DNA of 64,000 bases from Marsupella aquatica (lineage: Eukaryota > Plantae > Marchantiophyta). A program made the translations under genes and the position numbers. The DNA is taken from NCBI GenBank assembly GCA_973895155.1, contig OZ316893.1:14476645-14540644 (forward strand), given 5' to 3'. Below are positions 17,476 to 60,049 of the stretch, piece after piece (position 1 is the first letter of the stretch; each line of letters opens with the position of its first letter). The notes under the pieces were generated by a model. It searched no databases and was not told the origin of the DNA. It saw only the letters and a list, made by a program, of their open reading frames with translations.

Positions 17476-18142
17476 TGTGGCAAAAACAATGTAATTTCTG
17501 GGCGCCATGCCGTAAATATTAAGCGTAAAAAATCCAGAATACAAAGGAAGAGATGTCATTTAGTAAAGTAAAGTTACCAGTTGTCAATGATATATCAGTG
17601 TTTTACATCAAAATGCTTGTATTTTTTAATTGTTTGCAAGTTTAAAAACATAACCAATTGATAAAAATGTACATATCACTATATTCATTAAAACTGTACT
17701 TTTAAAAGTCCATAAGATGAACCCTAAAGTTATTTTTTTTCAGGCCAAATTTCTATTAAAGCATTCCCAAAAGCTAATTTTTTTCAGCCCAAATATACAC
17801 TTTTGAACGCCCAAAATTTTGTTTTTTTCACCCAAATGTTTAATAATAACTTAAATCATATAAATATTAATTTAAAAATTAGAGTAAATTTAATTTAGTC
17901 CAAAAATCAGAGGCCAATACCACTCAGACCATCTATAAATTAAAAAATATAGATGGTCATAAATCAAGGGTCAAAATGAGATTGACCCACTATATAATTA
18001 TTAAATTGTCCAGTCCAGTGAGAGAGCCTCACACTAAGCATATATCCTAATTATTTACTTTATCCTACATGTTCAAAACATATCCTTTCAAGACATAATA
18101 TGAATGTACAATTCAGGGTAGGCACTAGAGCAACCCTATCTC

Positions 18143-19168
18143 CTAATGATCAAGACAAAACTCATTTGAACAAGAAAGTCTGCTTCCTGATTTATCATAG
18201 CGGATGTCACGGTTGCAAGTATCTCTCGCATGGTGGTTCTTAAACTTATTGGTGATATCCCTAGTTCTGAGAACTTTCCAAATAAAATGCCTTCTATTTT
18301 GTGTATGAGGACCAGAATAGTTGTCTCCAAGTATTACGTTTGCAGTTTCTTCGATCTCATCCGTGGTCCACGTCTCCAGTGGTGGGTAGTGCTGCACCTC
18401 GTTCTTTCCGTCCCAAGGAATCTCTTTAGGAGTCACATCCAAGATGGTTCCAAACTCCCTATGGATACAACGACAATCTCCCCACTTCTATTCCAAAAGA
18501 GCATAGATGGCAGCATGATCCTCCTTGCTTGTTAATAAATTGAAAACAGACCACTTTGGATTGTTGACAGTGATATAATGTCGAACGCAGTAAGCCTTTC
18601 TCAATTTGCAAAGATACGGCCATAATATCTCGGGCAAAAAAGTGTCATTTGAAGCTGTGTGAGTAAATGGATTTGGAAACAATGCCTTCAATGGAGAATC
18701 ATCAATAAGCACTGTATTAGAAACATCATATTTTTCTGGAAAACGGTCCCAAATGGTTTGCAAATTCTTCAGAAGTAAATTGGCCTTCCCATCTGTTATA
18801 TCTGGCCTTTGGATGCAACTATCAAAGGTATCTTCTTGAGTAAAGACAAACTTGAACTTCTGTCGCTCCTTCTCAGTGAAAATCAACTCCATTAAGTCCA
18901 TTGTTTTTGGCCTCCTTGCACAGGTCCAAATTGCGACGTCAAAAACCATGAAAGCTGCATATAGAAATTCGTGGAGGTATGGGCGCTCCACATACATGAA
19001 ATTAAACCCTCAACGTCTCCCCCAGTGCACACCACGTAAACTTGTTTGATTTCGCCATGGTCCTGAGCTTCTGGTCTTAATGCAATCCCAACAAATCTTG
19101 TTAAGGTCAAGAACCAAGAGCTTTCGCCGGATCGGAGAGTGTAGTATTGGAGTGAATTCTGGAAACAT
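18143..19168 (-). pseudogene. FCP1/NIF (HAD-family CTD-phosphatase-like) protein with two premature stops
   Basis: One frame from the ATG at 19168: RKLLVLDLNK...ERPYLHEFL...FDVAIWT...KNLQTIW...NTVLIDDSPLKA. Stops at 19010-19012 and 18488-18490; the frame continues to 18143. The DxDxT motif reads DLNKI. Confidence 0.8.
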
Positions 19169-19512
19169 TAACATAAGCCCTTAGTCAATGCGACTCAAAG
19201 TTTAAACAATTACTACGGAGGAAAATTCTCAAAATTTGAAATCAAACAAACTTTGTTATAGCATTTGAAGTAGAGAGGAACGACCCTGGGGCAACCCTCC
19301 TAGAAAAACATTAATTACATTCAATTGCCATTTTTTAGATCCAAAGTATACCTGGGTCAAACCCTTCCTCCACAGCAACGCTTTCCGAGGGAATGCCAAC
19401 AAAATCCTTTGAGGAAGGAGATTCTACGACGGAACTTTGGTCTGTAAAAAAGTTTATTATTACAAAGATAAAGCTTAGATTGTCATTAAAATACCAAGAA
19501 CCAAAGAAAGGG

Positions 19513-20737
19513 CTAATAATTTCCAATGCTAAAATGCCCAAATTCATCTATTGTTTGATCACCTAGAACACTCTGTATCTCGGAATTGATACCACTGGGA
19601 AGTTGCTCTTCAAAGGATGGGGGTGCAAAAACTAGGCTCAGTCTCAAGTTCAGTTTTTTGTAATCTGATTTTGCCATTATCTTTGGAGCATCGTCTAGTG
19701 ATTCTATCATTCCAACCTTTGGTCCATTTCTCCATATAAAATGAGTTGCAGGACGGACTGTTTTCATATATCCAGTCCTGCCGATCTCGGATCCAGAATT
19801 TTGTGAAAATGATAATACTACAGGGCTTCCTGTAGAAGCACTTGTAAAACCAAATTTAGTCTCTGATGAGCAATATAGAGGAGACATGGGAGGATTTGAA
19901 GCACCTGCCTTCTCTTCTTCATTTGCAGCGGTCTCAGGTACTTGACGATCATCCGCCTTTGCAAGTGCAATGTCTGACATTTCTCCCAATTCTACTGCAT
20001 CAATATTGCCTAGACCATCTGCGGTTGCCTTCCAATGTGCGTCCGATGTGGACGATGTAAGATCTGGGTCCGATTGGTGCATCCAATTCTCTACACCGGC
20101 AAAGGGATTTCTTGGTGGGTCGCCCTCAGGTCGACCCACAACATCGGCCAACCCCACACCAAAGTAGGGAATACCTACCACTTGTGTTCCACGTTCATCC
20201 AAATGTCGAGTGACCCTGTCGTCTGTGTCGTGACCCAATTCTCCTTCCTCAATATCATCTTCGCCCTGGTCTACGCCTTCTTTGGCACCAACATGCTCGG
20301 AAACCCCATCGCGGGCTCTACCAAATTTGGAACCGCCCATCCGGTCACTCATTATGGAAGGAACTTTCTCACAGAGAACCCTTCCATATGCCTGAGTGAA
20401 ATCATATTCATCCTCAGTGTCTGAATACGCAAAGCATTCTCTGAAACACAACAATGACACCTTCATAACCTGTCCTCCCGAGAAAAAGTCAAGTATAGTC
20501 TCCCCTTCAGCCGAAAAAAAATCAATAATACTCTGCAGCATACATTTTGGCTTAGCGTGAATATTCACAAAGCCACCTCTACTTCCCACCATCTCAAACA
20601 TGGGAGCCTTTCGTAAGACATCTCCAATGTGAAATGCCGAAGTTGACTTAGTCTCTGTCTCCTTACTTGTCTTACTCTTATTCTTATCTCGCTTCTCCGT
20701 CTTGTCTTCCACTTGGAAATCAGGGTCGATCGCCGAA
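19513..20737 (-). pseudogene. 3' part of the ParB-like/DNA amino-methyltransferase-like gene (SAM-binding region plus acidic tail)
   Basis: HAKPKCMLQSIIDFFSAEGETILDFFSGG matches the HPxxKPxxLxxxII...SxxGDxVLDPFxGSG pattern of beta-class N4C/N6A MTases. It joins in frame to 50134-51188 once the CACTA element and one TTG are removed. Confidence 0.75.
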
Positions 20738-23700
20738 TTGCACTAGTAGAAACCGGGGCAATTTAGACCAAACCTTATAGGACTAAGGCCACTAAGTCCT
20801 TTTTTACAACTTCAAATGACTCGGAACCATTGCACCGGTTCACATGAACACTACAAAAGACTTTGAGTGCTTTTTGGTTTAGGATAAGACTATGAAAAGT
20901 TTCCACGTACCCTACTTTGTGAAAGGGTGAACACTCTCGCACATGAGTGTTGTAGGGTTTAGTTGTGGGCCTCAATTTGATAATGGGCATATGGGGGGTT
21001 TACGTCCGCTATATTGAACACGTACAAACTCACTACATGTCTAAATGCCCTAATGTCTCATATACTCCATAGTGGGTTTAGGGGGGGTTTACGTCTCAAG
21101 GGTGGGCCGGTTATATGTGAAGGGTGTGGGTGGTCACCACTAAAGGGGGTTTAGTAGGGTTTATATGTCAAGGGTGGGCCGGTTAGGTCTCAAGGGGGTG
21201 GGGGTCACCAACATCCCGTTCTATTCAAGTTTGCCAAGCCAAGAACCGGGTGCACACATACCCAAGATTTTTGGGCTAGCATGATTTTCAATTCACAGCC
21301 GGCTCTACTTCACCAACATCCGGCTTTATTGAACTTTTCCAAGCCAAGAAAAATTTGCTGAAATACCCAAGATGGCCATGCAGTAACACTTCAATGTAGT
21401 GGTGTCTCACTTTGGGTGACACTCAACGGCTCACTCAAACGGTAAGGTTGAGTGGCTCCCCTTAATGACTTAAGTCCCCTAATCTAGTAAAGAGGCACTA
21501 AACTGGTCTTTGGGAGTGACTTTGGAGTGTTTGGGCCATCGTCATTGGACGCAAAACGTGAGGGGTCCAAGGTTCGGGGTTTTACGTTGGATTTAGGTTT
21601 TGGCTGTAGGGCTAAGAAGGTTGTGGCTGCTGCAACCTTCGATCGGAGCTAGTTGTGAGGGCTTCATTCTTCGGGGATTTTTGAGAGAAGGGCCTCTCAT
21701 TGTTGCACAATTCTCCTGACCCGCACTGCCGATGTGTTGTGGCTGCACCCAGAGCGACTTGGTGTTGCCATTTGTTTCAAGAAGGTTGTGCTACCATCGC
21801 GAGCTGTTGAGGAGAGGGCCAGTTGCTTGCAAAAGGATTTGTAGATTGTGTCGGAGGTCTAGATTTCTCCATTTCTACCAAGAAACGACGTGCAACAAGG
21901 CAATGTGGAGCGCAACGGCAATGTCCAGGGTAGTCCTGAGTGCTTAGGTCATTCCATTCCTTATGAGAAATGTCGTGCGGCAGGGCAATGTGCAGTGCAA
22001 CGGCAACAATGTCGAGGGCACTCCTTAGTGCTTAGGTTTTCAGTGAGTTGCAGTTCGAGAGGAGCTATGATCTGGGGACTGAGGCGCTGAGGGTTTAGCT
22101 GAGGGGAGGAGCTGTGATCTGGGAAGGTGTTGCGGTGCCAAGGTCTATTGTAAGGTGAGGTGATTGTTGCGGAAGTTTAACTGTAGTGGGTCCTTAAGGT
22201 CGCGGAGGCATTCAAAGGAGGCGTGAGTAGGGCGGCAATCGTTTGTTGCTGCGGAAGGAGGACATTGGAGTTGTGAAGGCGCTGTGGAAGGCGACCACTG
22301 CGGAAGGTGGACTGCAGTGGGTCCTTAAAGCTTGCGGAGGCATTGAAAGGAGGCTGAGCAGGGAGGCAATCGTTGCTGCTGCGGAAGGTGGACATTGGAG
22401 TTGTGAAGGAGGTCGTGGAGCTTAAAGAGCAGTTGCAAAATCGGGAGCCGGTTGTTTGTTAGGAGGAAGCAGTTGATAGTGCTGCCATTGGTTATCAGTG
22501 TCATCAGCCAAAGGTTAGTCCCGGCCATGCAGCTGAAAGTGCGCTTCTTTCATCCCTTTTCCAGCAACTTTAGTTCCACATTGTTTTGTTGGGTTGTCTG
22601 TTGAATACTTTCATTGCCTCTACAGGCTGAAGGTTACTATAGGCCCTGGCTTGCGCACCCACTCCTTACACTCATGCCCAAAAACCAAACAACAAGTAGC
22701 AGAGCTCAAGCAGATCCGCTCCGCTCTGTTCTCAGCTGGCTGCGTAGTAGCTACATCTCCTCTGGTCCATCCTATTTTGAGCAATGTCATACCTCCATAG
22801 CATACAGCTTGCCTGATTGAATGGTACATTAGGTTCAGCACATTCTCCCTATGGCTGAAGAGTTATGGAAAACCCCAACACAATGAAATTCGTTATGATT
22901 TGTCTTGGCAGTCGAAGCTGCTGAAATTGCCGATTCTGATTGGATTCGGTAGGAATTCAGAATTTGTTGAGTTTGTTTGTCGCTGGATATGAGTTATTCA
23001 AGACTCCATGATTTGAGAGAAGCCATTTAGCATCCCTTGTAGATCCTGGTACCATCTGACATTGTGAGGGCTCGAAAGCCTCAAGTGACCGGGCCATCGT
23101 TGTATGCAAATTTTTGTTGTTGTATTCATGTACATCCCTGCTTGGATGAGGCGTGGTGTTGCTTGTAATCATGTATTTCTTCACACTAGAAAAGCAGTCT
23201 GTCATATGAGGTTGTCGGGATTGTCTTCCGGTCAGTCATCTTACATCTTTGTGTTGTTTTGCGTTTCAGTGAAGGGCACTAGCAAGTAGCAAGAGCAGCG
23301 AGCTGGTGATTTGCACCTTAGGCTTGGGCTACGGAGGGAGTTGCTGCAGCACCACGACAGAGAACGAAAGCACGGGTAACATTACCACTATAATTGTTGA
23401 AGAAAATACCTTTACCTGCTGCCATTTAAGCCGAGTGCACCGCCTTAAGTTTAAAGATCCCGTTGCTGGTAAGACATCATGGCTACATTGCTTTTCGATG
23501 TTGTCCTCTGTCCTTTTGTGGGATTCAGCCTGAGCTAGCTGAATCCAATCCAGGAGTTGTTGCGCTAAGGTGAGACTTTGAGTTTAGGGTTGCTTGAGTG
23601 TCCGAGTAGGTTTTCTCTTTGCGTGGGCAGCTAGAAGGTAAGCTCGGGGGCTTTACAAAGGGTTAGTGTTGCGGACTTTCCCTCCTGGACGTTGTGTGTC

Positions 23701-25596
23701 TTCATTTGCAACTTGTTTGTGGACCTGTGATCCTGAGACTGTCAAAATTGTTGTGGCCGCACTGACAACTTGATGACGCGTTTTGTGGATGCACCGTTAG
23801 TAATCGCGAGTACAGCTCTCCAACAATTGCACTTACCATTTTTGACCACCTTGCATGATGTCCATCCGTGGGCTGGACCCCAAGAAGTAGATTTCGGTAG
23901 ATTTCGGTAGATTTTGGTAGATTTTGTCTCTGCCCCCGGTCCTCATTTTGTGCAATGTCCGCCTGGCACTTGGTTCTTGATCCCTACATTATCGTCTGCC
24001 GCTCGGCTGCTTGCGGAAGGGATCAAACAGATTGGAGGTGCTTGGTCTTTTCATTTTGAGTGTCAGAGTTTAGGAGGACAGCTTGCACCATCGCCGACAA
24101 GAATGACCTGCTTGCAGAACAAGAGGGACGAGCGTGAGCTGCTTGCAGAATAGGAGATTGACCGCGAGCACGAGCTGCTTGAAAAATAGGAGACTGAGGC
24201 CAACCTGCTTCTTTGTTGCTACTCTGGTTGCGCTGCTACATTGGTTGTTGATCTTCACCCACCCACTTGCCTACTCAATTGATAGAGTACAGCTTTGTCT
24301 CTGCGTCTGTTACTGTTGTCTTTGTCCCTCCCCTTGAAATTGTGGGCCTTAAAAGGTCAGTAAGTTGGCTTATGTAGTTTTTATGTCCCTCCGCTATGTC
24401 AATGTGTGTTTCATTGCATCAGGGCATCAGTCGCTGTTTGCCTATAACCGGACTGTTCATTCTCTGTCCACTCATTTGATGTAATTCTTCCCATTGCCGC
24501 CCAATGCTATGGCGCCCATGCTACAATTTGTGGTTTTTGTCTAAGCACAAATCCTCTCTGTGCCTGGTTTCTGTGTCCCGTCATTTGGATTGATTGTGTA
24601 GACGTTTCCTCTTCTCCCAGTCCTTGTCATCCACCAGCCAAAGCACATTGGATTGTTTTCAAAGGAGGGCTGTGTAGTTTGGAGGGTTTGATCTATGCAA
24701 CGGATTTGAGCAGATTGGCGGTTGTTAGTTTCTTCTTGTAAAACCTGTCTGTCTTTTCTGCTTTTGGCCATGCTCCTTCACTTCTTGCTGCAAGCTCAAT
24801 GTGCTTCAGCTATGGCAATATTCACTTACCCTATCCCAACGGCACTACCGTGAGCTGTAGGACAGCCAACAGAAGCAGATTGTATCGATTGCATGTAAGT
24901 CAGGGTATTTTTATGTATTGCGGAACAACTGTCCAAGTATGCTGCAATGGCCGGTCTTGCACAGCTGAATGAGCCAATTTCATTTTCCCTGTGCACTTCT
25001 ATTTCTCAGAGAATTCCCTGGTCATGCTCATTTCCCCCAGAGTTAGAAAACAAAGAAGAAGAGCTGACTAATTGTAATTCCAATCCATATCCTGATCGGT
25101 CAAGGATTGTTCACTACATTGGCCTTGTCATTGGCCGAGGTCACCAAATTTTGCTTGGTTTCATTCCTGTGGAGCACTGCTGTGATGGATTTGTCGTAGC
25201 ATTCTGCAAACTCTCACGGTTTGCTTATGGCCATTATTTGCAATTTGCTGCTATTAATATGTCTTCTTCTGAGCAGCATACACCAGAAGTAAGCAATAGT
25301 GGAGGTTTAACTGCACATCAACACATCTACTAAACTACCTCTCTGCTGCTCACTGGAGGGTGAGACTTTCACTCTTTCTGGATATTGTAGTTTGTAAGCA
25401 AGTTGATTAGGAGTGTTTCATGCTATGTTTACAGTGTGACCCCTAGCTGGAACCAATGGAATGACACAGTGAGTGGGAACTGATAATTTAAGGTTGGTTG
25501 CTGTTGGTGAGGCAAGTACAGCTCCTGCTCACCTTGCTGATCGAAGGTGCTTATCAGAGGACGTGAACACACGACTTGTCCACAAAAGCAACACTT

Positions 25597-26046
25597 ATGG
25601 TGAGGACCCGCAACGCTGAACATGTGCGGCTTGCACGCAAGGCAGAGATGTTGCGCCTTGAGTATGTCAGACTTGGGATCCTTCCAGCCCAGTCTGCATG
25701 GTACTTTGAGTACCCAGTTGTTGCCAGGAACAACTACAGTCGGCCTGTACCTGCTTCTCCACCCTTCTCAACATCCTTGGTATTTCTGTCTCTAGTACAT
25801 GACCCGCCACAAATTAGGGCCCAAGGGTGTGTGCACAGTTGCCAATATGACTGTCCTGCCTATAGGGCTTCTGGCCTAGAGTTGGATGACCGTTCTCTTG
25901 GATGTCGGTTTTTTCACAGAGCACAATGTATCATCTGGAACCACTCGCCATCCTGCAGTGTGCCTGGCGATGTCACTTGTCCTGCCCTCCCAGACCCCAC
26001 CACCGGTCACTTTGGTGTCTACACATGTTTGGATCACACGCTCTAG
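25597..26046 (+). CDS. Hypothetical Cys/His-rich protein (possible CACTA cargo)
   Basis: About 149-aa ORF (MVRTRNAEHVRLARK...) with a Cys/His-rich C-terminal half. Same strand as the adjacent cargo ORFs. No family recognised. Confidence 0.35.
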   Translation: MVRTRNAEHVRLARKAEMLRLEYVRLGILPAQSAWYFEYPVVARNNYSRPVPASPPFSTSLVFLSLVHDPPQIRAQGCVHSCQYDCPAYRASGLELDDRSLGCRFFHRAQCIIWNHSPSCSVPGDVTCPALPDPTTGHFGVYTCLDHTL

Positions 26047-26715
26047 AGGACCACTTGTCACACCGCATGCACAAACCAGAGACCATTGACCTATAACTTA
26101 ACACTTTGACTTGAACAGAGAGGATATTTACTTAAGATTTTGAATTATGACCAATTTTGGGTCCAGGGTTTAGGGTCAACAGTACATAACTTATCCTATT
26201 ATGGCTGCACTAAGTACAATATCCTAATTTAAGAGGCTAGCAAGCTCACTTAAAAGTCTCCTTTCAAAGATTGGAATTAATGGGCCATGTGATAACCTGG
26301 AAAAAGTGATTTCTGCCTAACTTATTTGTCTCATTCACTATCATAGCCTATTTAGGATGTATAAATTACAACCCTGATCACAGTGCTTGATACCAATCCT
26401 GTTCAAAAAATGCCTGTTTTACATGTCACGACTGTTATATGTGATTCAAATGCATTAAATCTTGTTGCAGATCTCCTTTGGTGAATCATAGCCACAAAAT
26501 TGAGGTGTAGGTGGAGCTATTGTACGAGGGGATCAGTTTTTAGTGTGGGCTCAACAAACCAAAAAGTATGTCTACTCTGCACATGTGTGTGAACATTTCA
26601 TTGCAGTAGCAATTGCCACTCTAGTCTATATGCTACACTGTACTTTTTGTACACTGCACTAAATTGTATTGTCTGTGCACTCTGCTAAATTGTACTATCT
26701 ATCTCATGCGTAGGC

Positions 26716-27396
26716 ATGGCACGCCCTAAAATCCGAGCCAAGAAGCGGGGGACAGAGGTGAGCAACACAGGTGTAGTTGGGCCAGATGGTAGTAACTTCT
26801 CCGCAAGTCAGATTTTCCAGAAGGCAGCTCATTGTTGTGCCATTTGTGACGATGGTGGTGGCTTAGCCATATGTGAGGGCCCTTGCATGAGGCATTTCCA
26901 CCTCAACCCGGAGTCTGACCTTGCTGCAGAAAACAACTGTCCAGGGGTGGGCCTCCCGTCAACACACCAGGGAGGCTGGATGTGCACTGATTGTTTGGAG
27001 AAGCAGGCTAAGTGTGCACAGTGTGGGAAGTTGGGGTCTTATGAGGGCTCTGTTGATGCTCCACCACTTGTTAGGAAATGCCCTGACAGATATTGTGTGA
27101 GGTTCTTTTGTTTTTCATGTTTGTCCGATCTTGCCACAGCTTGCCCACTTCATAAGTGCAAGGCATGTGGTCAGCACGATGAAGATTTCTGGGTGGACAT
27201 AGTCCACTGTGTTAGGTGTCCCACCATGTGGCACTTTCATTGTTTGAAGGAGCGTCAAGCAGAAGGCTATGCTTGTGACAGACACATCTATGATCACTCT
27301 GCACATGGTGTTGATCGATGGATCTTCTATTGTCATCGCCATGCCATAGATCCTACTTTGCACACTCCCATGAGAGATCACATTTCTTGGCTTTGA
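26716..27396 (+). CDS. Stand-alone EDM2-type multi-PHD-finger protein, 226 aa
   Basis: CAICDDGG...CEGPCMRHFH, CxxCGKLGS, CPLHKCxxC, CxRCPxxWHxxCL and the terminal YCHRHAIDPTLHTPMRDHI closely follow the PHD cassette of plant EDM2. Basic NLS-like N-terminus. Intact and intronless. Confidence 0.88.
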   Translation: MARPKIRAKKRGTEVSNTGVVGPDGSNFSASQIFQKAAHCCAICDDGGGLAICEGPCMRHFHLNPESDLAAENNCPGVGLPSTHQGGWMCTDCLEKQAKCAQCGKLGSYEGSVDAPPLVRKCPDRYCVRFFCFSCLSDLATACPLHKCKACGQHDEDFWVDIVHCVRCPTMWHFHCLKERQAEGYACDRHIYDHSAHGVDRWIFYCHRHAIDPTLHTPMRDHISWL

Positions 27397-27994
27397 ACCT
27401 GAATAATGTACATGCATAGTGCACCTGATGTGGATACCTTGGAGATTGCAGACATTCCAATTTTGAGAAGAAGGACCTCTGTAGGAGAGGATGCTTAGGC
27501 AACAAGTACCCTAAGTTCATTACTTGTTCCTGGGTACATGCCTTCAAAAACTCCCCTTAAGCCTTCTAGGAACTTTTTTAACTCTGCAATCATTTTGATC
27601 ACGACTTACATGACACTGCTTAAATTAAATCAGGACTTCTCATTATGAGCATATAAGTTACAAGGCTATTTAATTTGCGAGAATTCCCTTAAAGTGTACC
27701 AACATTTTGTATTCTCATTGAATGTCTGCCCATTTACAACATCTGTATGTGGCATCACAAAACAATTGCACTTGTCACCTTCAATATTGTGAAGGCACAT
27801 ATTCAAACTATGAGGTGCATGCTTGCAGGTGTCTAGTACGTTTGTCCCAATATTTCTCCCGTTTGGAATCGGAGCAGAGACTCACCAGACGATTGGACTG
27901 GACCAAGTTATAAACGCAGCATTTTAAGGGCCCTCCGATTATCAGGTGAACGCATTATCTTCCGGTCTGCAGTGATTAGGTGGCCCGTGTGTAC

Positions 27995-28843
27995 ATGGCC
28001 TCTAGGAAACGTACAAAGGTTGACCACCCGCCTCTGTTGGCTGGAATCAAAGCCATTTTGATTCCTGGCCACTATGGGTTCACCCAAGTGAGTTGGCCAA
28101 TCGTACAAAAACGATTCTCAGAGTTCCATGGGACTGAAGTCAAGGACATCACTCCACAGACTACACATGTTGTTGCGGGGACATGGCTGGATGTGATGAA
28201 CAAGTGGTCATGGTCCTTCATTGATTCTGCCATTACCAACCAAGGTCTAAAAGTAGTTGAAGTCTCTTGGCTGACCAATTCTGTTAAACATAGGTGTGTA
28301 CAGAGTACTGAGCAATATGAGTTGTGGGAGAGTGAGGAGGCCACTGCAGAGGCTTTGGCTGAAAAGGAAGCCTATGAAGTAGCGGCAGAGAAACCCAACT
28401 TTGCTTCTGTCCAATATGGACCTGTTGTCAACATAGGACACCATCCTATGCGTGCAGATGCTATATTGAATGAGCATGGCAAGGAGAGAAATACCATTAT
28501 GAAGGGGTTCAGTGTGGTATTTGCAGAAGAAGGAATTGGGGAGACTAAGTGCAGACTGTACAAGTCTATAGTTGTTGAGCTAGGTGGGACAGTGGAGGAG
28601 AGTCTAACAGAAACCTCCACTCATGTTGTAGGTCTGTCATACATGAAAATATGCAGAAAATTCTTTAAGACAACAGTGCGTGATTTTGTCATGAACAACA
28701 ATCTTTGGGTGCTTTCCCCTGATTGGCTTCTGGAATCAGCAACTAGAGGGAAGCGACAGAATGCTTGGGACTTTGATATTTTTGAGGCCTGGCCCTCCAA
28801 GATTCAGCGGAGATGTATGCTTAGCAAAGGTGGGAGAGAGTGA
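27995..28843 (+). CDS. Tandem BRCT-domain protein, about 282 aa
   Basis: Two repeats with THVV and W-L-x-x-S hallmarks (TTHVVAG...VEVSWLTNSV; STHVVG...LSPDWLLESA). Basic N-terminus RKRTK. Intact ORF. Confidence 0.85.
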   Translation: MASRKRTKVDHPPLLAGIKAILIPGHYGFTQVSWPIVQKRFSEFHGTEVKDITPQTTHVVAGTWLDVMNKWSWSFIDSAITNQGLKVVEVSWLTNSVKHRCVQSTEQYELWESEEATAEALAEKEAYEVAAEKPNFASVQYGPVVNIGHHPMRADAILNEHGKERNTIMKGFSVVFAEEGIGETKCRLYKSIVVELGGTVEESLTETSTHVVGLSYMKICRKFFKTTVRDFVMNNNLWVLSPDWLLESATRGKRQNAWDFDIFEAWPSKIQRRCMLSKGGRE

Positions 28844-32500: not shown

Positions 32501-32668
32501 CCTCTCTAGAAGTGGAGAGTTGAAACTACTTATGTATGGAGTGATTGGACATTGTAAGCACACTTCAGAAGTTTTGTCAATCCTTTGTGACCTGGTATGA
32601 CATGGAGCAGGTATTAGGTAGTCTTTTGGGGAGAAAAGCCGCTTAAGCTCCTTGGCAAGTGTTTGACA
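29532..32668 (+). repeat. 5' LTR, 3137 bp
   Basis: TGTGGGATGG...GTTTGACA, repeated at offset 9294. Contains short internal repeats (gagcacgaggcaaggag x3 near 30330) and a diverged duplication at about 32084-32198 and 32263-32377. Confidence 0.97.
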
Positions 32669-32688
32669 TAGAGTCCCACCCTTGTTTT

Positions 32689-46015: not shown

Positions 46016-46192
46016 GCAACAGCTGGCGATTGGCAAGTATGAGGTTGAGGATGACTACGTGCACAGAGTCACAGAACGGGAATTGCTGCCTGGAATGATG
46101 TTTAGGATAGTTGGATATGCATGAAATTGATTGATACTTTGAATTTAGTGTGCTGATTCTCCCTGTTTGGTTGTGGGTGCTGTGCAGAAGCT

Positions 46193-49100: not shown

Positions 49101-49360
49101 ACAGCAGAGCCAGTCCATAATCTTCTATCATGGGAGGATGACTCGCAGGTATGTGTGGGTACAGGCATTTTGCGACCGAATCATGCAAAATTCCATGGCA
49201 AAGTGGTCCCGGATGACCATGTAGTAGTGTTGTTGACTACAGTGATTGTATCTGATTGTAATTTGCCATTTCCGAATAGAGACGATGATCCACCTCAGGA
49301 AATAATTGCAGATGCAGTAGGATCTCTTGTGCTCTAGCCATCAGAGTGTGTTAGTCTGTA
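46193..49360 (+). CDS. CACTA TnpA-like second gene, multi-exon, possibly degenerate at the 3' end
   Basis: Series of plus-strand exons with GT-AG junctions: acidic N-terminus, RGG repeats, a helical domain (LKQERHRLKRMW...DQWTRLI...SELMSNAR), a coiled coil, and a C-terminal domain VGTG...FHG...LPFP...DAVGSLVL ending in a stop where Trp would be expected. Confidence 0.65.
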
Positions 49361-49809
49361 GTAACTGAATGCAAGTGTAGATAGAATCATGTGAATTGTG
49401 TCACATTTTGACATTGCCTTGGAAAGATCCAAGAAATATCTGTACCAGTTTTTCCATTTGGTAAAAAGGATGAAGGAGACGTTGTGTGTGACATTGATAT
49501 TTCTGAATTCTGTATGTATGAAACAAGTGATTGATGTCAAACTATGGCTCTATGGTGATTGTCTATGATACTTGAATCTATTTTATCATTTCAGTATTAG
49601 TGTGTATGGTATAGAGGAATACTTTGTGACCTTCTTTGTAGTCTATGAAGTTTGAATCTGTGAATTCATATTAGTGTGGTGAACTTATAGAGTGAGTTCA
49701 TTCCAAGTACACAATAAAACATGAATGCAATATGTTATTTGTGCACAAGAGTGGGTTCATTCCAAGTAGTATAGTGGGGTCTTCATCACTCATATCCAGT
49801 TGACATGAA

Positions 49810-50100
49810 AGACTTATACATACCCCACAAAGTATATTTAAAGACTACCCTCCATAACCTTTTTAGTCGTTCCCAACGACTCATCATCGCAGCCCATAAA
49901 AGACTGAAAACGACTCACCAAAGCTACCCACACAAAGACTAAAATAGACTGAAAATCCAGTCTATTAAACGACTTATAAACCAGTTCTATAAAGGACTCA
50001 GTTGATTATAGTAACAAAACATACGACTCGCAGTCCTATAAAGGACTGGAGTCCTTCCCAGTCGTTTCCAAGTCGTATACGGTACTGAATAGTCGTTTAA
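49810..50100. repeat. CACTA subterminal repeats
   Basis: More than ten short (A/C/G)GACT or AGTC(G/C) cores (aaagact, aacgact, agtcgtt) in both orientations next to the right TIR. Fewer copies lie near the left TIR (20778-20895). Confidence 0.65.
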
Positions 50101-50133
50101 TGGGGTCTAAATACCCCCCGGTTTCTACTAGTG

Positions 50134-53019
50134 TTGTAAGAAAATTTGCAATTAAATCCAGGCCTGAACACTTGCTTCCAATCAAATTTCTCCTCAGTGG
50201 TGATTCCTGCAAAGATTATCTCCTCCATACCACAACTGAAAAGTAAGCCCTCTGGAACTGGTGTATCACTCCGTCGATAGCTCCCGTAGTCGACGTGTAT
50301 GTCCATTCCCTTTTCATGTTGCAATTTCCTAAGGGCACTCAAAATGTTTGCAGCAAGTGGCCCCGGATGCACAGTCATGACAACAACAATTGTTGGATTT
50401 CTTGGAAGATCCACAATGTATTGCAGTAATGCAATAATTTCAGCATCGGTCCAAACATGTTGTCGGAGCCTACTGAAGTCAACAATGGCAAGAGGACACA
50501 AAGGCGAAGGCTCTTGTAGCATTTCTGGAACGGTCGTCTTCATCAAATTCTCACTAAAAAATGTCAAGAAAGGCTCCGTGCGAGAACGACCAATCCCACC
50601 AAATTCTTTACAATACAACCCATCTAGTCTGACCATCAGACTTTGTGGGAAACTCTCCTTGACCACATTCTTCTTCAATGAATTGTTGAGGTAAACCTCA
50701 CCCGCTGCTCTCCTCAATTTTGTCATCTCAAGCTCAGATTTCAAGGAAGGCAACAATATCACCAGAGACTCCCAAGATGTGCCAACAGGAAACTTCTCAC
50801 GATACTTTTCCACGAAATAGCCAATAATGACTGTTCTCAATTTGGACATTATCTTGATTGTAAGGGCCAAGTCTCCCATTGCGACAAGCTCTGATTTGTT
50901 GGTGATATCCTTCTTCAGCAAGACACGCTCCTCTTCAATGTCCTTCAAGATCTCAATTATCTGTTTGCTACTAATCTCTCCTTCAAAGCATCGAAAGGTA
51001 CCGGGAGTGATCAATTTTGGGGGTCTTGGCCCTCCATACCCACCAGCCCCGTCTTGGAGCTTCCCACTCAACCATTTTGCACACACGTTCCGCCATAATT
51101 CAAAGAGCTCATCTTCGGCAAAAAGTAACCAATAAATGCTCTTTAGGCTTGACTTCCCCATTGTAACCTTTGCCAGGGCAAACCAATCCTGCATATCCAA
51201 TGGACTTGACATTAGTTTCAGGGTACAATGCATATGTTAGAAAATTTATACCTATGTTTGAAACAGGCTAAGCCACCTCGCCCCAAGGGTGTGGCGAACC
51301 TCTACATCTAACCGCAATTGACTGAAACGGAACTAGGGAATTATTCTTAGAGAGACTAGTCTAGGTTGCCTCGCCCTGAGGGCGAGGAAAACATTTGCTT
51401 TAATCTTCTAACCAAGGAAAATAAGAAAAGGCAGCCTCGCCCTTGGGGCAAGGCAAACCTCTACCATTGACAATCTTTAAACAAAGCGGATCAAGAATAG
51501 TTTGCGTTGCTCTAACATGTACCTGATAGTTTTTCCTGTCTATATTTTGATTGGTCCCAATCCCTGGACGCGGCGGTTTCCTGCACTCCTCAAACTGCCT
51601 TCGTGCATGAACAATAGTCTCTAAAAAACAAGACTTAAATTGCATAGTATCATTGACAGCATTCGATAAACTTGAATGCTCAACCAAAATTGTCTTTGGA
51701 GTGAGGTCAGATAGGATCCTTGCTTTCCTATACTTTAGTTTGTTGGCAAGATCTGTCAGCTTGGCGTCAGTCTCGGCCCACCCTTGGATCCATTGGGCAG
51801 CTCTTGCAGAATGCTGGCCACTGATGGCAAGGAATTGGATCTCATGCTTCTTCACACCAATCAAAAACTCTTTCCTATCCTGAGGTGTGTTGTCATAATG
51901 AAGCAACTGTTTAGTGCTCTCGCGATACGGAATCAAATCAGCAACTTGTGGTTCCTGTCCAGGGTTTTTCATCATAGACTTTGATATCTCCATTGCATGC
52001 GAAAGATTGAACATTCGATATACAAAAATGGCCGATGGCGGATTAATACTTTTTACAGGAATATCAAAAACTTCGCGGATGCCAAAAGTATAATACTGCT
52101 CAATATTACGCAAAACCTCTTGGCCTTTGAGCACATCATCTTCTTTGGGTCCTTCTGTCGGACACATATCATCCTCTGGATGCAAGACAAAGTTTGAAGT
52201 TGACCCTGACATTGGTTTTGATTTTGCAACCTTTGCCTTCTTTGTTTGCTTTTTTTGGGGGCCCTCATCGTCTTCATTTTTTTTAGCCATCTTCTTACGG
52301 CGTGAACTCCCAGATTGTTTCTCTTGTTGAACAACCGGCTCTTGAAGCTTTCGTTTCTTCTCTGTCTTTGATTGCACACTTCTTTCCACTGTCTTCTTTC
52401 TCTCCTTTGCCTTATGCTTTGCTTCTTTTTTCTTCATCTCTGAAATCCACGTCCGGCACGCGGCCTCTTGAAACTCTGGACAAAAAATGAAACTCTTGTC
52501 GATTGCTTGCTCGTATGAAAAATGTGCCTTATCAATCATCCTTTGGACTATCCAAGTAGACGGAGGGTCCACACTGTCCGCATTGTCATGCATGTGCTTC
52601 TTTACGTAGAGAAATCCAAACACTAGGTCAACTCCACTTATTTGAGAACGCGTCTTCTCAAACATCTGATCAATTGTTACTCCATCTGGGAAGAATCCCA
52701 TATCAGCTACGCTTATCTCCAATCGAGCCATCCACTCAACATTCAGTAAAGTCAAGTAGAGTTTTATTGGCACTAGAAGTCTCATCCACTGAGATTTCTC
52801 ATTGGACTCAACAATAATCGTTGCATTGCGGTTGTTGTCCGTGTTCACAAGGACGACTGGACCTAGAGTAACAATTGTCTTGCGGTCATTCAATTGACTT
52901 GTGAGGCCCTTGAAACAAATCAAGAGACTGCCTTCCGCCGACACCCCAACTTCTAGTGCCCATCTAAATCCTGGAGTATCTTGGTCAGGGAAAACAAAGT
53001 CCTTGATATCCTCGTCCAT
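50134..53019 (-). pseudogene. 5' part of the ParB-like/MTase-like fusion gene; exons 53019-51523 and 51188-50134; interrupted by CACTA
   Basis: ParB/Srx-like segment FDIPVKSINPP...YRMFNLSHAMEISKSM...FLAISGQHSARAA after a Lys-rich linker. Phase-0 GT-AG intron 51522-51189. The second exon has a strand ending LAIVDFSR at the position expected for MTase motif IV. Confidence 0.7.
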
Positions 53020-53219
53020 AATATTTAACTCCGGCTTCTCAAGATTTTTTCCTGGTAAGAAACATTGAAAACAAAATGGTCAGCATCATATTTTTAACAT
53101 TGACATGTGGAAAACTTTCAAGGTGCCTCGCCCTTGGGGCGATGCGACAAATAGAAGATTGCAAAATCTTCTTTGCTCCTAATTAGCCCTGCCACCTCAT
53201 CCAAGCAATCAAACATTAT

Positions 53220-53590
53220 TTAGGAATGCAGACGATATCGCCTCGCCCCAAGGGCGAGGCAACTTCTAGGAAAGCAAACAATATTTAGGAATGCAGACAA
53301 CGTCGCCTCGCCCCAAGGGCGAGGCAACTTCTGGAAAGCAGACAACATTTAGGAATGCAGAGGACATCGCCTCGCCCCAAGGGCGAGGCAACTTCTGGGA
53401 AAGCAGACAACATTTAGGAATGTAGAGGACATCGCCTCACCCCAAGGGCGAGGCAACTTTTGGGAATGCAGACAACATTTAGGAATGCAGATAACATCGC
53501 CTCGCCCCAAGGGCGAGGCAACTTCTGGGAATGCAGACTACATTTGAGGAATGCAGACGACATTGCCTCGCCCCAAGAGCGAGGCAAAAA
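53220..53590. repeat. Six-copy tandem array of about 65 bp with a 21-bp palindrome GCCTCGCCC-CAA-GGGCGAGGC
   Basis: Palindrome starts at 53240, 53305, 53369, 53434, 53499 and 53565. Further dispersed copies at 53125, 53682, 51275, 51368 and 51434. Confidence 0.95.
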
Positions 53591-55132
53591 ATAGAATATA
53601 GCTAAAGATCCTTTATTAATGTAAGATACAAGGTCCAATACGCCTTCCGAGCAACAAGAAATCTAGAATGAAGTAGACGTCGCCTCGACCTTGGGGCGAG
53701 GCGACTGCAAAGGAATATAGAAATTTTCCTAATAAGAAGTTTGAAATCCAAATTAAAGTAAAGTTGGCGAGGCAAGAAGTTGAAGCAGGTGGTGCCTTAC
53801 ATGGAAAAGTTAACTGGGCTTTCTTTGACGCCTCCAACGCATTGTTAACCAATTTTTGGACATCTGGGTCTTCAGGGTCATATTCATACAGAGAGTTATA
53901 ATTGAAGTTCAATGACTCTTGAGAACTGGCGGAGGTGGTGGAAGCTTCAGAACTGGAGGAAGTAGACATTGTAAGGGGCGAGTGAGATTTAAGATGACAT
54001 GTGGCAGCAATGGAGAATGCCACAGGCTGCAAGAGGGCACTAACAGGCAAACAATGATCGAGGGAGCGACCCAAAAGGGAAGGGAGCAAGGCGGAAATAA
54101 AAGCCTTAGAGCGAGGTGGAAAACAAATCCCAAGAGCGAGGCAAAAACAAAAGCCCTAGAGCGAGGCAAGAGGGAGGCAAGGAGTGAGGAGACGAGAGAG
54201 GAGGCAAGAGGGAGGCAAGGAAATGAGGCCTCAAGCGCAAGGCCTGCCTTCCTATACCCCCTGCGAGCGAGGAGTCCGAGGAGGCAAGGATCCGAGAGGG
54301 TACGGAGGCATCAATGTGCGCCAATGATGGAGACCCTCCTCGGTGCATGTGATCATGAGTCACCGATGGTGTGACCACTCACGACCACTCGCGACTCACC
54401 TACCAATTTTAAACTTCCGAGCTGTCAGCGGTGTGTGCTTGCAACTCACCTATCACTCGTGAGTGATTGGCTGACACCCTATCCGATGTCTACTTGTGTG
54501 CTGGGTGCGTGCCTCATCCACCCGTGCCCGATCTGTTGGTGTCCACTCGTGTGCTGGGTAATGTGTGGGCTTTTTGCCTCTCAAACTGAGTATAGACCTC
54601 CCACAATCCATTTTTTGGTTCATTGTCATTTAGACAGTGATTGGTACAATCACTGACTCTCCTCTGTCCGAGTGCCTTGTTTAGGTCCGCATGGTTGAAT
54701 GCAAGGTTTAGTAAGGGCACTGGTGAGCACTGTGGTGCTAAGAGTTACAATACTGGCATCCAAGGTACCCATTTAGCTTGTACAAGGGTGGACAGAGATA
54801 TATTGCAGAGCAGGTTAGTGATTTTATTTATTTATCTTAGAAGTACTAGCTCAACTACATCTAATTCAATACCTTTAAGCCAAACCTAGATTAAGATTTA
54901 CACATTAGGTTCTAGATCATATATTTTACTCATTCTAGACCTTTATCCACAATCTAGCATGTGTAGAACTTACTGTACCCCTTTATGTGATTACTAACAT
55001 AGTTTCTAGAAGTGGGTCGGAATTATTTCGTGCCGACCTGACTATGTCATCTTAACTAGCATTTTAAACTGGTATATAAAAGCATAAGCAAGATAGTTTC
55101 ATAAATAGTTTTGACATAATTTCAACTTAATA

Positions 55133-55533
55133 GTTGGAGTAGGGTCGAAATAATTCCGACCCAACTTATCAATGTTTAGTCAATTAAATCATTTTAAGAC
55201 ATATTGTTGGAGGAGGGTCGAAATAATTCCGACCCGACTTGTAAATGTTTAGTCAATTCAATCATTTTAAGACATATTGTTGGAGGAGGGTCAAAATAAT
55301 TCCGACCCAACTTGTAAATGTTTAGTCAATTCAATCATTTCAAGACATATTGTTGGAGGAGGGTCGAAATAATTCCGACCCGACTTGTAAATGTTTAGTC
55401 AATTCAATCATTTCAAGACATATTGTTGGAGGAGGGTCGAAATAATTCCGACCCGACTTGTAAATGTTTAGTCAATTCAATCATTTCAAGACATAATGTT
55501 GGAGGAGGGTCGAAATAATTCCGACCCGACTTG
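55133..55533. repeat. Six-copy 73-bp tandem array with palindrome GGGTCG-AAATAATTC-CGACCC
   Basis: Palindrome starts at 55142, 55215, 55288, 55361, 55434 and 55507. An inverted diverged copy is at 55014. The array ends about 130 bp upstream of the transposase ATG. Confidence 0.95.
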
Positions 55534-55659: not shown

Positions 55660-58600
55660 ATGATCAATTTTACACGAGGGGATGAAGTGTCATTGGTGAT
55701 CGATGGATTTGAAATGGCAATTGGGATAGTTCAAAAGGTTGACCCCCAGGATACTATACAGAACATTTGTCTAGGGGACAATCGAATTGGGGTATTGATC
55801 GAAAAGTGTTTTGATAGATCGCGTCAACTTCCATTTCCTTCGCCCAAATTTTCTACATTGGCTGAGGCAATTGACTCCTGCGTGATTTGGGATTGTGCAT
55901 TGGCATACTTGAGGTCATCAACTCAGCGCCGAAGAATCAATGTCGATGATTTCTCTTTGGCTGGAGATGCTGGAAATGATAAATCCAAAATTGATGCAAG
56001 GGTTGAAGAGGACGTGTTCAAGGAAGGAGATGAAGTTCAGATGTTCATTTTTGATCAGTTGGTTGCAAATGGAGTCGTTTTCAAGACAAATCCGATGGAT
56101 ATTTGTCATACTGAAACACTCGAGGTTGGTCGCATCAGTATAAGAATATCTGATATTGTTAAGGGAAATCAAAAATTGCCATACTCGCACCCTGGAGCTG
56201 ATACAATAGAAGAGGCCTTGCATACCTGGGTTATCTGGGATGTTGCGCATGTTTCTAGAAAGGGCACTCTACGAGATTTTGGCGTGTTTGGTAGTTCAAA
56301 TATTTTCAATGATCTCCCATTAAAAGATCTTACACTACGTTCCAACTGGATGGCGGAGGAGGTTGATTTGTATGACGCTTCTCGTTGTCGAAAGGTTGCA
56401 ACAGGTCTTATCACGGTCCCATTTGAAACAGGTGCCATTGACGATGAACTTCTTGGTGCAGATCATGTTGGTGTTGCTGTTGTGAATATCAATGAACCCG
56501 GATTATTTCCAAATATCCGTGTTGGTACCCCTGGCTTGGTGAGGTGGGAAATCAAATCCCTTCTATTGATTTCGTCTCAAAGGTTTCTTGGGGATATCCT
56601 TGAGGAAGTTTCAAAGAAGTGGATGGAGTCGGGTCGAACTAAGGGCGATCCGGATTCGGATGGTGATGGTAAACCTACAAAAAGACCATACAATTTCATT
56701 AGGAGGACAAAAGTTGATCTTGAGGAGAGGAAGAAAAGGCATTTGGAGTCGAGGGCACTTTTGAAAATTAATGAGGAGTCCATTGATTCCATCCAAAGAG
56801 AAGGTTGTTGCAAGCTGAAGTGTTGCTTGAACATGCCCAGGGAGGACTTAGAGGCAATGAGGAGGGAATACCATGGAATGTCAAGTGACAACAAAACAAG
56901 TCACATCTTTAGTCTCTTTGGGTGTAGAGAGGAGCAAGTCAAGAGAAAGGGATTTTTTGTTCTAAAGGGACGTGTGGTTTGTAAAGATGCATTTATTAAA
57001 ATGCATGGGTTCAGTACAACAAAGTACTATGACTACAAAAATCAATACGAAGCTGGTTGCACAATTGGTTTCCATGGAAATCAGGGACAACGGAAGACAT
57101 GATCAAGCACTTTGCACGCTCGCGCCTTGTTGGAGTCCATTTTAATCCAAAATGGGGAACCAATGCCACATCTTCCCTATGGTGGGTCCAACGGCACTGA
57201 CACTATTGAATATCGGCTCCCATCTTGTTTTACTAAGAAGGAGATTTTCCAAGAGGTGTTTACCAAGATGGAATTAGATGGGTTTGCTAAGGTTACTGAA
57301 GTTACTAGGTACAACATCTGGAAAAACTCATTTGATAATTTTGACTTTCACAAGGGAAGTGCATTTGCCAAATGCACATTTTGCACTGAGTTCAAAGATC
57401 AATTGATGCGGGAGAAGAGAAAAAAAGAGCGTGCAGAGATTGAAGAGAAAAGAGCGCGACATCTTCGTGAACAAATGTCAAGAAGATATGTTTACTATGC
57501 TCATAGGGTTCTTGCAAAGAAGGATCCTCAAAATTATCTTTGCATTATTCACGATAAGATGGATCAAGCCAAGACTTGGATCCCCAGGTTGGTCCCCACT
57601 CCAAAATCCCTCTCTGGTAGTGGTCAGCCTTTGCCTATTGCTCTTACTGGGATGTTAACCCATGGAAGAGATCCTGGAGTGTATGCACATTTCAGTTTGA
57701 CTGGACTTTGGCCTGGAGATGCAGACTTTACCGTGACATCTTTGGCCAAATGCCTCCGAGATTTGGAAGATTACACAGGAGACAAAACTGGAGACCTTCT
57801 TGAAGGATTGAATTGGAATGCAACTAGGCCAATATTTCAGTCCCTTCTAGACTTTGAAGCATTTCTGGCCGGTTACTTGGAACCCAAAAATGTTTCAATT
57901 GTTCGATTTCAAGGCATTGAAGATGGTCAGGAGACTAAAAAGTCAAGCACAGTGGATGTTGGTTCTAAGGATGATCCTGAGACTACTAGGGGCTCTTTCA
58001 AGCCCTTACCAAGGCACCTAACGTTGCAGATGGACAATTCAGGGAAAGCTAACAAAAATCAATATGTGATGGCATTTTGCACTGAGCTTGTTAGCAGGGG
58101 GTGTTTGAAACTGTGCAAATGTCATTCCTCATGGTTGGCCACACCCATGAAGACGTGGATGCATTATTTTCTCAAGTATCCAAACAGGTCAGATACAAAG
58201 AGGTTGCTACCCTCTTGGGGTTGATGGCTGAGGTTTGGGAGTGTGAAAGCATTCATCCTGTACCACGATTGATTCAAGAGGTTGCATCTTACAAGGAGTA
58301 TTTGAAAACTTTCCAGGTGAAAGAGATAGAAGGTCACTCAAAACCAGTGGCATTTCTTTTCTCCATGAGGGATAATGTGCCAGTGTATCAATATAAAGCA
58401 CATGTCAAGCAACCTTGGCTTCCGGCAATGGGGAGGTCCATTTGGAGAACTGATCCCATCACAAATGCGCTCATTTTACCGGAAGGCCAACCATTTGCAA
58501 AACCTATATCTGGGGATGTACAAAAGAAGGCTGGAGAAATCATCCCATTCCTTAATCGCTATATTGATTTCTTGAAGAAAAGTTGTAAGGATGAGACCTC

Positions 58601-59374
58601 TGCAGCATATAAAGAGAGATTTCCTCTGGTCAAATATTGGGAGAATCTTGTGCAAGCATTGTCCGAGGAACTTACAATAGAAGGGGAGGGGGGAATACAT
58701 TTGCCATTGACAACTGATTTTTGGCCAAAGACTAACCATGGCACAGGTTACAAGATGATTTTGGGGACATCTCAGCCGTCAAGTGAACCTTCTCAAAATC
58801 CAGAGATGATGGACCTTCAAAATGAGTACATGGAAGAGATGGAAGATCAAGCTGCACCCTTTGTTGGTGCACGACAAGAGCGAGAACCTGCACGTTGGAT
58901 TCCTCTACAAGATATTCAAGAAGGTCACTTTGTATTTTTACGTCCAGAGGATGAATGGGAATAGGAAAATGGCAAAGGGCGTTTCTGGTTGGTTCGAGCT
59001 TTGGGTGGTGTGGATCCAAACATGAGGTTCCCTCAACAGATTTGCAACATATTGAAGGGTCTTCTTCAACGTCTGTTGAGAGCATTCCTCTCAGGAATGC
59101 TCCTATGTTCCAAGTACAATGGTGGAGGCCTAAACATGGTAAGCATGATGCAAAGGATGATGTTCGATATGAACGTTGCTTTCAAACCACTAAGACTTGG
59201 GAGCTGGATCCTAGGTTTGACAATGTTACTCAAAGTTGGCAGTTTGCAAATTTTGCAATGTATGGGTTTAAGTCAGGTGCTAAAGAACAAAATATTATGG
59301 ATAGAGGTTTGACAATTCCTAAGAATGTTTTGAAAACTCTCAAAATTTACATGGAAGGTATAATTGATGAGTAG
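55660..59374 (+). pseudogene. Sola-like/DUF7869 DDD transposase, about 1230 aa, disrupted
   Basis: CCxxxC...VCxxxF region, FAKCTFC, IIHDKMDQ, LQMDNSGKANKN and SFLMVGHTHEDVDALFS. In-frame stops at 57100-57102 and 58962-58964; frameshifts near 58100 and about 59030. Confidence 0.85.
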
Positions 59375-60049
59375 ATTGATAGAACTCGTAGGTTACAAGT
59401 CTCCACTCAAATGACTTGTGATTAAGAGGGTCGAGTTGATTTCCATGCGTTGGTCTAAAGTGAGAGAACAAGACAATCAAATTAATACTCTATGATCTCT
59501 CAAAGCTATTGAATGGACTTTCTTATAATTATTATTTTATTTGTCTTAGTATATTTTAATTCTAGAAAATGATGCCATTTCATTCCTTCTAGTAGGTTGG
59601 ATATCATCCTAGTTAACTTTGTCTAGACACTATAGTCATTCCATTGTATTGGTGCTTAGTTAGATATCTTACTCAAGCTAAATGTTTTGAATATAGATGC
59701 TATCCAAGCTTATATGTTATTACTAGATTCTATCTATTTTCCAACCAAATGAACACTTTTATCACCCAAATGTTTTTTAATATCATCCAATTTAATATTT
59801 TACTTTCCCAAAATTTCATTTTTTTGGTCCCCAAATTTACATTTAATGATGCTTGAATTTTCATTTTTCATCTTCCAAATTTACAATTTTCATGCCTAAA
59901 ACTATGTTTTTAAATCGCCAAATTTCCCTATATCCTTTATAATTTCAGTTTTAATGAATATAGTGATACATAGTTAGAACCTCTTTGGCTCCACATTGAA
60001 AAACTAAATAATCAATCTCCTTAATACTTGATGAAATCTGTCAAAATTT

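Follow-up and report, generated by a model that had tools for sequence, protein, structure and literature searches.

A Sola-type DNA transposon of the liverwort Marsupella aquatica carries, opposite its transposase, a passenger gene that joins a ParB-like fold to a methyltransferase-like fold, together with two arrays of 21-bp palindromes. The element lies in a stretch of 64,000 nucleotides (contig OZ316893.1, positions 14,476,645 to 14,540,644; hereafter the window), which is eukaryotic, repeat-rich and CpG-depleted and which also holds a long interspersed nuclear element (LINE), a CACTA element and a Ty3 element. The present copy is damaged, as the transposase, an FCP1-like gene and the fusion gene are all disrupted, the last being split by the CACTA insertion. 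Our tentative reading, held with slightly less than even confidence, is that the passenger protein of such elements would bind the palindromes of its own element and shield their CpG sites and nearby promoters from silencing. What the present work adds is a defined candidate binding site and a loss of the catalytic loop across the whole family, and the element points away from simple self-methylation.

The unit is bounded by a perfectly matching pair of 22-bp terminal inverted repeats (TIRs; Table 1), with a looser match reaching 33 nt at 91%. Sola elements are described with a DDD transposase, a 4-bp target-site duplication and TIRs of 11-1,124 bp in the account of PMC10741241, and the present TIR lies within that range. 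ACAT flanks the unit on either side, the duplication being readable as 4 bp (ACAT) or 6 bp (TACATA), and both readings predict an identical empty site. Four of the eight sequencing runs listed were compared, and in run X5 six contigs running rightwards from 59967 carry a match to the left flank on their left. This empty site indicates that the unit is a precise insertion, and a 2-bp TA duplication of the Tc1/mariner type was ruled out by it. It may represent a paralogous locus, because the flank is a high-depth repeat; at 59968-60504 this surrounding repeat contains subrepeats of 70-75 bp. By analogy, the 4-bp duplication would fit both Sola elements and the A...T termini of Sola1-1_Ec32, an Ectocarpus element discussed below. 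With its nested inserts the unit spans about 42 kb, and removal of 20741-50136 leaves 12,897 bp and reopens the fusion-gene frame across the junction. An earlier note on this DNA, made from its letters alone, had proposed such a bounded unit of about 12.9 kb after in silico excision, with an FCP1-like gene and an intron-containing ParB/methyltransferase fusion gene of about 1,260 aa on the minus strand, two palindrome arrays and a DDD transposase on the plus strand, and this layout was borne out part by part.

The transposase was recognized by matches to DUF7869 (E 7.1e-15 and 1.1e-22), which we take to be a mark of Sola-type transposases, and by the DDD motifs HDKMD, QMDNS and GHTHEDVD, each present in the window copy and recurring among relatives. 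Twenty-six relatives, with identity of up to 77%, were found among 1,859 candidates. The frame is interrupted by a stop at 57100-57102, a frameshift near 58097, a second stop at 58962-58964 and a second frameshift near 59020, where an extra base occurs in some or all contigs of each of the four runs compared. At its start (55660-56600) the transposase repeats a small beta-rich module about three times, and relatives from Calypogeia and Riccia conserve this module. Pfam PF26133 is found in two relatives, P0126 and P0128, the latter having PF03017 in addition.

The fusion gene lies on the minus strand opposite the transposase and encodes about 1,260 aa in pieces of 499, 351 and 408 aa. In support of its intron, a gene model of Calypogeia fissa (P0020) has the same exon junction and a further relative (L001) the same intron position. 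With the ParB half as query, 88 relatives were found among 1.84 billion representatives, and the species-named relatives come from the liverworts C. fissa and Riccia sorocarpa. ParB-like and methyltransferase-like parts stand in a single protein in four Riccia gene models (P0062, P0077, P0079 and P0094), while the methyltransferase half in Calypogeia forms a five-member cluster spread over four scaffolds, the pattern expected of mobile cargo. By these sequences, the family is dispersed in liverwort genomes. Within the protein, residues 223-277 form a disordered Lys-rich linker. If a candidate short first exon at 53800-53970 (minus strand) were joined to an acceptor at 53053, array 1 would fall in a first intron; this exon was left out of the protein length because its simplest splice leads to a stop in the present copy. 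At the other end, a small folded C-terminal domain (19516-19830, minus strand) follows the acidic linker and is kept in P0001, P0002, P0102 and P0137, with a predicted local distance difference test score (pLDDT) above 80 in part.

For the first exon, an AlphaFold2 model built with 64 sequences in the alignment reached a mean pLDDT of 84.7. Its ParB fold aligned with Myxococcus ParB at Z 9.6 (root-mean-square deviation [rmsd] 2.3 over 94 residues), while sulfiredoxin scored lower (Z 5.9). Structural matches comprised ParB, Noc (Z 8.9), PadC and KorB (Z 7.8), Foldseek gave E 1.7e-3 to Noc, and the best six rows of an unbiased wide structure search were all of the ParB/Srx fold. At the level of predicted structure, these results confirm that the N-terminal half holds a ParB fold. 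Its ParB box reads SGQHS and is conserved in relatives (G401 in 55 of 59, H403 in 58 of 59, S404 in 52 of 59); R335 (53 of 58) and N453 (50 of 52) are likewise retained. A series of helices is predicted to follow the ParB fold across the intron, as read from models of separate pieces and from the alignment. Residues 1-150 give a weak match to a generic PH-like fold (Z about 5). Identity of this N-terminal domain with DNMT1 RFTS was considered and rejected, the Foldseek rows being weak (probability 0.07-0.15, rmsd about 15) and RFTS being absent from the 50 rows listed by VIA-align. A homodimer prediction for residues 175-474 of P0055, run without an alignment, scored 0.00 and was counted neither way.

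The methyltransferase part, split by the CACTA element, was modelled through the relative P0001, which is 50% identical. The mean pLDDT of that model is 49.4 over 901 residues, with values mostly of 70-90 in the structured core, and its methyltransferase fold matched MboIIa (Foldseek E 5.4e-8) and CcrM (Z 17.6). The model thereby confirms that the C-terminal half is predicted to have a beta-class amino-methyltransferase fold in permuted order, with motif IV ahead of motifs X and I. At the sequence level, Pfam N6_N4_Mtase (PF01555) matched the window 3' piece at E 0.0016, under the cut-off, for the methyltransferase half the ESM Atlas ranked clusters with no name at the top and also returned an N6_N4_Mtase cluster (0.90), and matches to DNA methyltransferase families in PHROGs were confined to the surroundings of motifs X and I. 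The S-adenosylmethionine (SAM)-binding side is conserved, with the K-P of motif X, DFFSGG of motif I and an acidic residue after the next strand. The catalytic motif IV, [DNSH]PP[YFW], was absent from all 19 sequences scanned, and the strand-4 motif reads DFSR, DFGR, DFSQ, DFAR or DLI in each of the 13 family members in which that strand is readable. With motif IV replaced in every one of these 13 members, ordinary methylation by the fusion protein is doubtful, and with it the earlier proposal of self-marking by methylation; judged from the motifs, the fold is probably inactive in the passenger protein. The earlier note had also supposed that a prokaryote-type module was adopted. Both folds of that module stand, while its prokaryotic source was not found: pattern scans yielded no confirmed relative among the candidate stretches from viral contigs (11 and 48) and prokaryote genomes (60), and with P0137 as tblastn query three phage methylases matched marginally (E 0.7-0.9) and no plasmid did. 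All of these searches are insensitive at such a distance and are no proof of absence. Profile searches of solved-structure sequences returned Lys-rich noise alone.

The units of the two arrays are mutually unrelated, yet each array holds palindromes of 21 bp in which TCG occupies positions 4-6 and CGA positions 16-18. Fifteen of the 16 TCG-N9-CGA words in the window fall inside the Sola-type unit, and the pattern GSSTCG-N9-CGASSC with at most one mismatch gave 19 matches, every one inside the unit, against 0.27 expected. The two that lie outside the arrays and the intron (20117 and 56631) are in coding DNA and blend features of both array types. With two mismatches there were 27 matches, where 5.39 would be expected for the window as a whole. 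Of these, 23 lie inside the unit, six of them outside the arrays and intron, against about 1.1 expected for 12.9 kb. Two departures from the pattern in the intron (51388 and 51450) are the consensus base in other runs, among the matches listed (40 of 807 rows). Selection on a site bound by a protein would be expected to give such a distribution, and we infer that the 21-bp palindrome, new in the present work, is a candidate binding site. Half-site-like words GAGCGAGG occur five times, four of them within 54084-54272 at a 25-bp period, and resemble one arm of an array-1 palindrome.

The element represents, in a land plant, a class that is known from algae and has barely been described. Sola1-1_Ec32 of the brown alga Ectocarpus has a gene of 1,104 aa, ParB-like and N4C/N6A methyltransferase-like, opposite its transposase (PMC12477816), and the earlier view that the combination was undescribed did not survive this comparison. 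The Ectocarpus element is described as of Sola1 type with a 4-bp duplication and A...T termini, which the present unit would share if its duplication is read as 4 bp, and both elements have an opposite-strand accessory gene of this make-up inside the TIRs (1,104 versus about 1,260 aa); binding and modification of its own element were proposed for the Ectocarpus protein. By contrast, the algal element measures 21.5 kb with imperfect 282-bp TIRs, against 12.9 kb and 22-bp TIRs in the land plant, and the portion of its description available to us mentions neither a palindromic site, nor a loss of the catalytic loop, nor a phosphatase-like gene. In the red alga Bostrychia, Plavaka (EnSpm) elements carry the accessory genes PAG2 and PAG3, with a ParB-like accessory protein encoded beside tandem inverted-repeat arrays (10.1101/2025.02.11.637652). 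The best match of that protein, 7BNR, is also among the top matches of the ParB half studied here, and binding to the own element was proposed for the PAG protein; as described, however, the ParB part is joined to a 2-oxoglutarate oxygenase, an adenine methylase sits on a separate SET fusion, and the transposase is of EnSpm type. The class was noted only in passing in those parts of the algal genome papers, with neither a binding site nor a test.

VANDAL elements of Arabidopsis are Mutator-like elements. Their accessory protein VANC recognizes short motifs arranged in tandem in introns, intergenic DNA and terminal non-coding DNA (PMC5735166), and a motif accumulated in this way within its own element occurs here as well. 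Anti-silencing was shown for VANC and is inferred for the Sola-type passenger; the available description of VANC contains no ParB or methyltransferase fold, and its motif is 9 bp long and non-palindromic. The bacterial CTPases ParB, Noc and KorB share the N-terminal fold (Z 7.8-9.6), and the palindromic sites of ParB are known as parS. The window protein differs from them in its SGQHS box, an additional N-terminal PH-like domain and a C-terminal methyltransferase fold, and no ParA was seen inside the Sola-type element. From the beta-class amino-methyltransferases (CcrM, MboIIa, RsrI, PvuII, bdelloid N4CMT and Marchantia DN4MT1), which have the same fold and permuted motif order, it differs in its replaced motif IV, its location on a transposon and its fusion to ParB. 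DN4MT1 is described as lacking extra domains (PMC8885841) and as retaining TSPPY (Marchantia 4mC preprint). Eukaryotic fusions of ParB-HTH with Dam and inactive DIRS methylases are on record, none of those seen in that survey having the present layout (PMC4738411), and C5 methyltransferases are reported in retrotransposons (PMC5890265). A ParB-methyltransferase transposon in land plants was not found in the literature searched, which did not cover subscription journals.

In the reading we favour, the helical region after the ParB fold would read DNA, the fusion protein would bind the palindromes of its own element, and the methyltransferase fold would grip DNA with no methyl transfer. The outcome would be relief from silencing by 5-methylcytosine (5mC), as VANC provides for VANDAL elements, and the placement of sites in the intron, the intergenic region and both ends parallels that of VANC targets. 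A more far-reaching version, which we regard as somewhat unlikely, is that Sola elements of bryophytes possess a system of self-recognition derived from ParB, with loading at the CpG palindrome, spreading, a repurposed methyltransferase fold for shielding or non-canonical marking, and the FCP1-like protein as a partner at RNA polymerase II, the element remaining unmethylated and transcribed. If true, land plants would have evolved sequence-specific anti-silencing a second time and independently, here from bacterial segregation and modification parts and with a target site that can now be named, and a sequence-specific tool for keeping plant DNA unmethylated would be at hand. Liverworts combine a transformable model with 5mC silencing, and the escape of cut-and-paste elements from DNA methylation is thus directly testable in them.

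Several observations weigh against the shielding reading and are given here beside the evidence that they qualify. The GxxR arginine patch is a motif of ParB-type CTPases, and because SGQHS lacks its second arginine, CTP-dependent spreading may have been lost. The possible helix-turn-helix after the ParB domain is read from the helix pattern alone, and profile searches gave no match for one. The site pattern was drawn from the arrays and intron, the source of 17 of the 19 matches, leaving the non-array sites as its only test. With regard to linkage, which the earlier note had proposed to test, passenger and transposase occur together at similar depths in other sequencing runs. All 30 bins of 50000-60300 were covered in each of the four runs, and in run X1 the contigs near-identical to the window had depths of 480 and 474 for passenger exons and 517, 509 and 555 for the transposase. 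Such contigs had depths of 421-555 across passenger exons, spacer and transposase, while depth was about 32-37 for diverged contigs and about 1,600 for the CACTA end, which fits co-amplification of passenger and transposase; however, contig depth does not equal copy number, and no contig spans the whole stretch. One Riccia gene model, P0091, combines a ParB piece with a DUF7869 piece and is the sole such model among the relatives seen. Against this, no adjacency of passenger and transposase was found in small samples, neither among seven passenger and 17 transposase Riccia locus tags (the nearest 28 genes apart) nor among the Calypogeia accessions seen, and the two contigs from a metagenome scan (1.2-1.6 kb) are too short for linkage. 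The dN/dS of the passenger against L001 was below 1 (about 0.25 over 201 codons and about 0.33 over 209 codons), with dS near saturation and L001 itself decayed. The arrays had observed/expected CpG ratios of 0.79 and 1.08 and the fusion exons of 0.51-0.65, against 0.32 for the CACTA transposase and 0.13 for the Ty3 open reading frame (ORF). CpG retention is nevertheless weak support for anti-silencing, because the ratio of the Sola-type transposase (0.44) is no higher than that of the flanking LINE (0.43), and it is close to that of the left CACTA half (0.42); short young arrays, moreover, can retain CpG for other reasons.

Other explanations of the same features have to be considered. The proposal made for Sola1-1_Ec32 would have a methyltransferase with a non-canonical loop, targeted by ParB, write 4mC (N4-methylcytosine) or 6mA (N6-methyladenine) at or near the TCG/CGA half-sites as a self-mark. 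The conserved SAM-binding side, the good retention of DFSR among close relatives, the predicted activity of permuted eukaryotic clades with unusual strand-4 motifs (PMC4738411) and the existence of 4mC writers in Marchantia and bdelloids would all agree with it. We consider it improbable, as both prolines and the stacking aromatic of motif IV are missing in all 13 readable members, the loop drifts to DLIA or DFAR in distant members, and Marchantia's own 4mC writer retains TSPPY. The presence of KorB (Z 7.8) and Noc (Z 8.9) among the close structural matches, the densest arrays between divergent genes and the sites near both ends could instead be explained if the protein binds its sites for transposition or self-restraint, whether as a KorB-like repressor of divergent promoters, as an end-joining clamp or as a tether of the excised element. 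This account, too, has in our estimate only a small chance of being correct, and it leaves unexplained both the retention of a methyltransferase fold and the centring of half-sites on CpG, which is best kept at the arrays.

The least probable of these accounts treats the passenger genes as cargo that merely hitch-hikes, and takes the palindromes for sites bound by the transposase or for simple expansions of repeats. That all three genes are broken in the present copy, and that no adjacency to a transposase was seen in the small samples from other assembled genomes, is what neutral cargo would give. By contrast, a brown alga has the same gene design on the strand opposite its Sola1 transposase, the 88 relatives retain the ParB-box residues, the sites are mostly internal rather than subterminal, and the same spacing is reached by two repeat units that are unrelated to each other.

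Table 1. Positions of the Sola-type unit, its genes and sites, and the elements nested in it (window coordinates).
Feature	Position	Strand	Details
Left target-site duplication ACAT	17671..17674	+	6-bp reading TACATA = 17670-17675
Left TIR	17675..17696	+	22 bp, perfect
Two degenerate sites, left non-coding end	17968..18136		17968-17988 (both CpG changed symmetrically) and 18116-18136; 2 mismatches each
FCP1/SCP-like HAD phosphatase-like gene	18140..19445	-	broken; frameshifts near 19100 and 19010; stop 18488-18490; ends approximate
Fusion gene, 3' part	19513..20739	-	408 aa (20739-19516); motifs X (VNIHAKP) and I (DFFSGG), motif II region and acidic linker, then a small C-terminal domain that is conserved
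Palindrome in coding DNA	20117..20137		perfect match to common pattern
Nested CACTA/EnSpm element	20741..50133	+	CACTAG termini; TTG duplication 20738-20740 / 50134-50136; foreign to unit
Ty3 long terminal repeat (LTR) retrotransposon	29532..41963	+	inside CACTA; LTRs 29532-32668 / 38826-41963; GATTG duplication; foreign to unit
Fusion gene, middle part	50134..51188	-	351 aa (51188-50136); post-ParB helices, then first half of methyltransferase fold with strand-4 motif DFSR
Fusion gene, intron	51189..51522	-	GT-AG; palindromes at 51275, 51368 and 51434
Fusion gene, 5' exon	51523..53019	-	499 aa; PH-like residues 1-150 (weak), Lys-rich disordered linker, ParB fold 316-459 (box SGQHS)
Array 1	53125..53702		65-bp unit, 5.7 copies; 8 palindromes GCCTCGCCC-N3-GGGCGAGGC; possibly within a further 5' intron
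Array 2	55014..55533		73-bp unit, 5.5 copies; 7 palindromes GGGTCGAAA-N3-TTCCGACCC; just upstream of transposase
Sola-type DDD transposase (DUF7869)	55660..59372	+	2 stops and 2 frameshifts; palindromic site 56631-56651
Degenerate site, right non-coding end	59428..59448		2 mismatches
Right TIR	59946..59967	-	inverted partner of left TIR
Right target-site duplication ACAT	59968..59971	+	flank comparison, empty site

The FCP1-like gene was identified by a Pfam NIF match on 18491-19009 (E 4.3e-10; 39.9 bits versus a cut-off of 21.8), and its location inside the TIRs is known for the present copy only. DxDx(T/V) is the catalytic motif of FCP1/SCP phosphatases; the first motif here reads LLVLDLN, not DxDxT, and is followed by a frameshift in this copy. 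An internal exon with a clear acceptor and donor lies at 19353-19445 (minus strand), between the fusion-gene stop and the FCP1-like frame, because of which the two genes may be on one transcript.

Among the nested elements, the CACTA insertion carries the domains Transposase_21, DUF4218 and DUF4216, and splits the methyltransferase-like exon of the fusion gene. One contig of run X1, 1,675 nt long, matches 50134-51086 apart from six differences and continues for a further 722 letters unlike the CACTA end, which suggests an allele free of the CACTA element. Within 26689-28843 (plus strand) the CACTA insertion holds an ORF with an NSD-like PHD finger (Pfam E 1.2e-5, just under the cut-off) and one with tandem BRCT domains (E 3.2e-13), and by their domains these appear to be the CACTA element's own chromatin-type cargo. 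The Ty3 element inside it has LTRs of 3.1 kb identical at 3,138 of 3,141 columns, which point to a very recent insertion, and an open gag-pol frame of 2,037 codons with a CpG ratio of only 0.13, as might be expected of a recent insertion from a long-methylated family. Outside the Sola-type unit, a 43-nt inverted repeat (91%; 147-189 / 8113-8155) surrounds the LINE remnant at 1779-7073 and possibly marks a further TIR element with a nested LINE.

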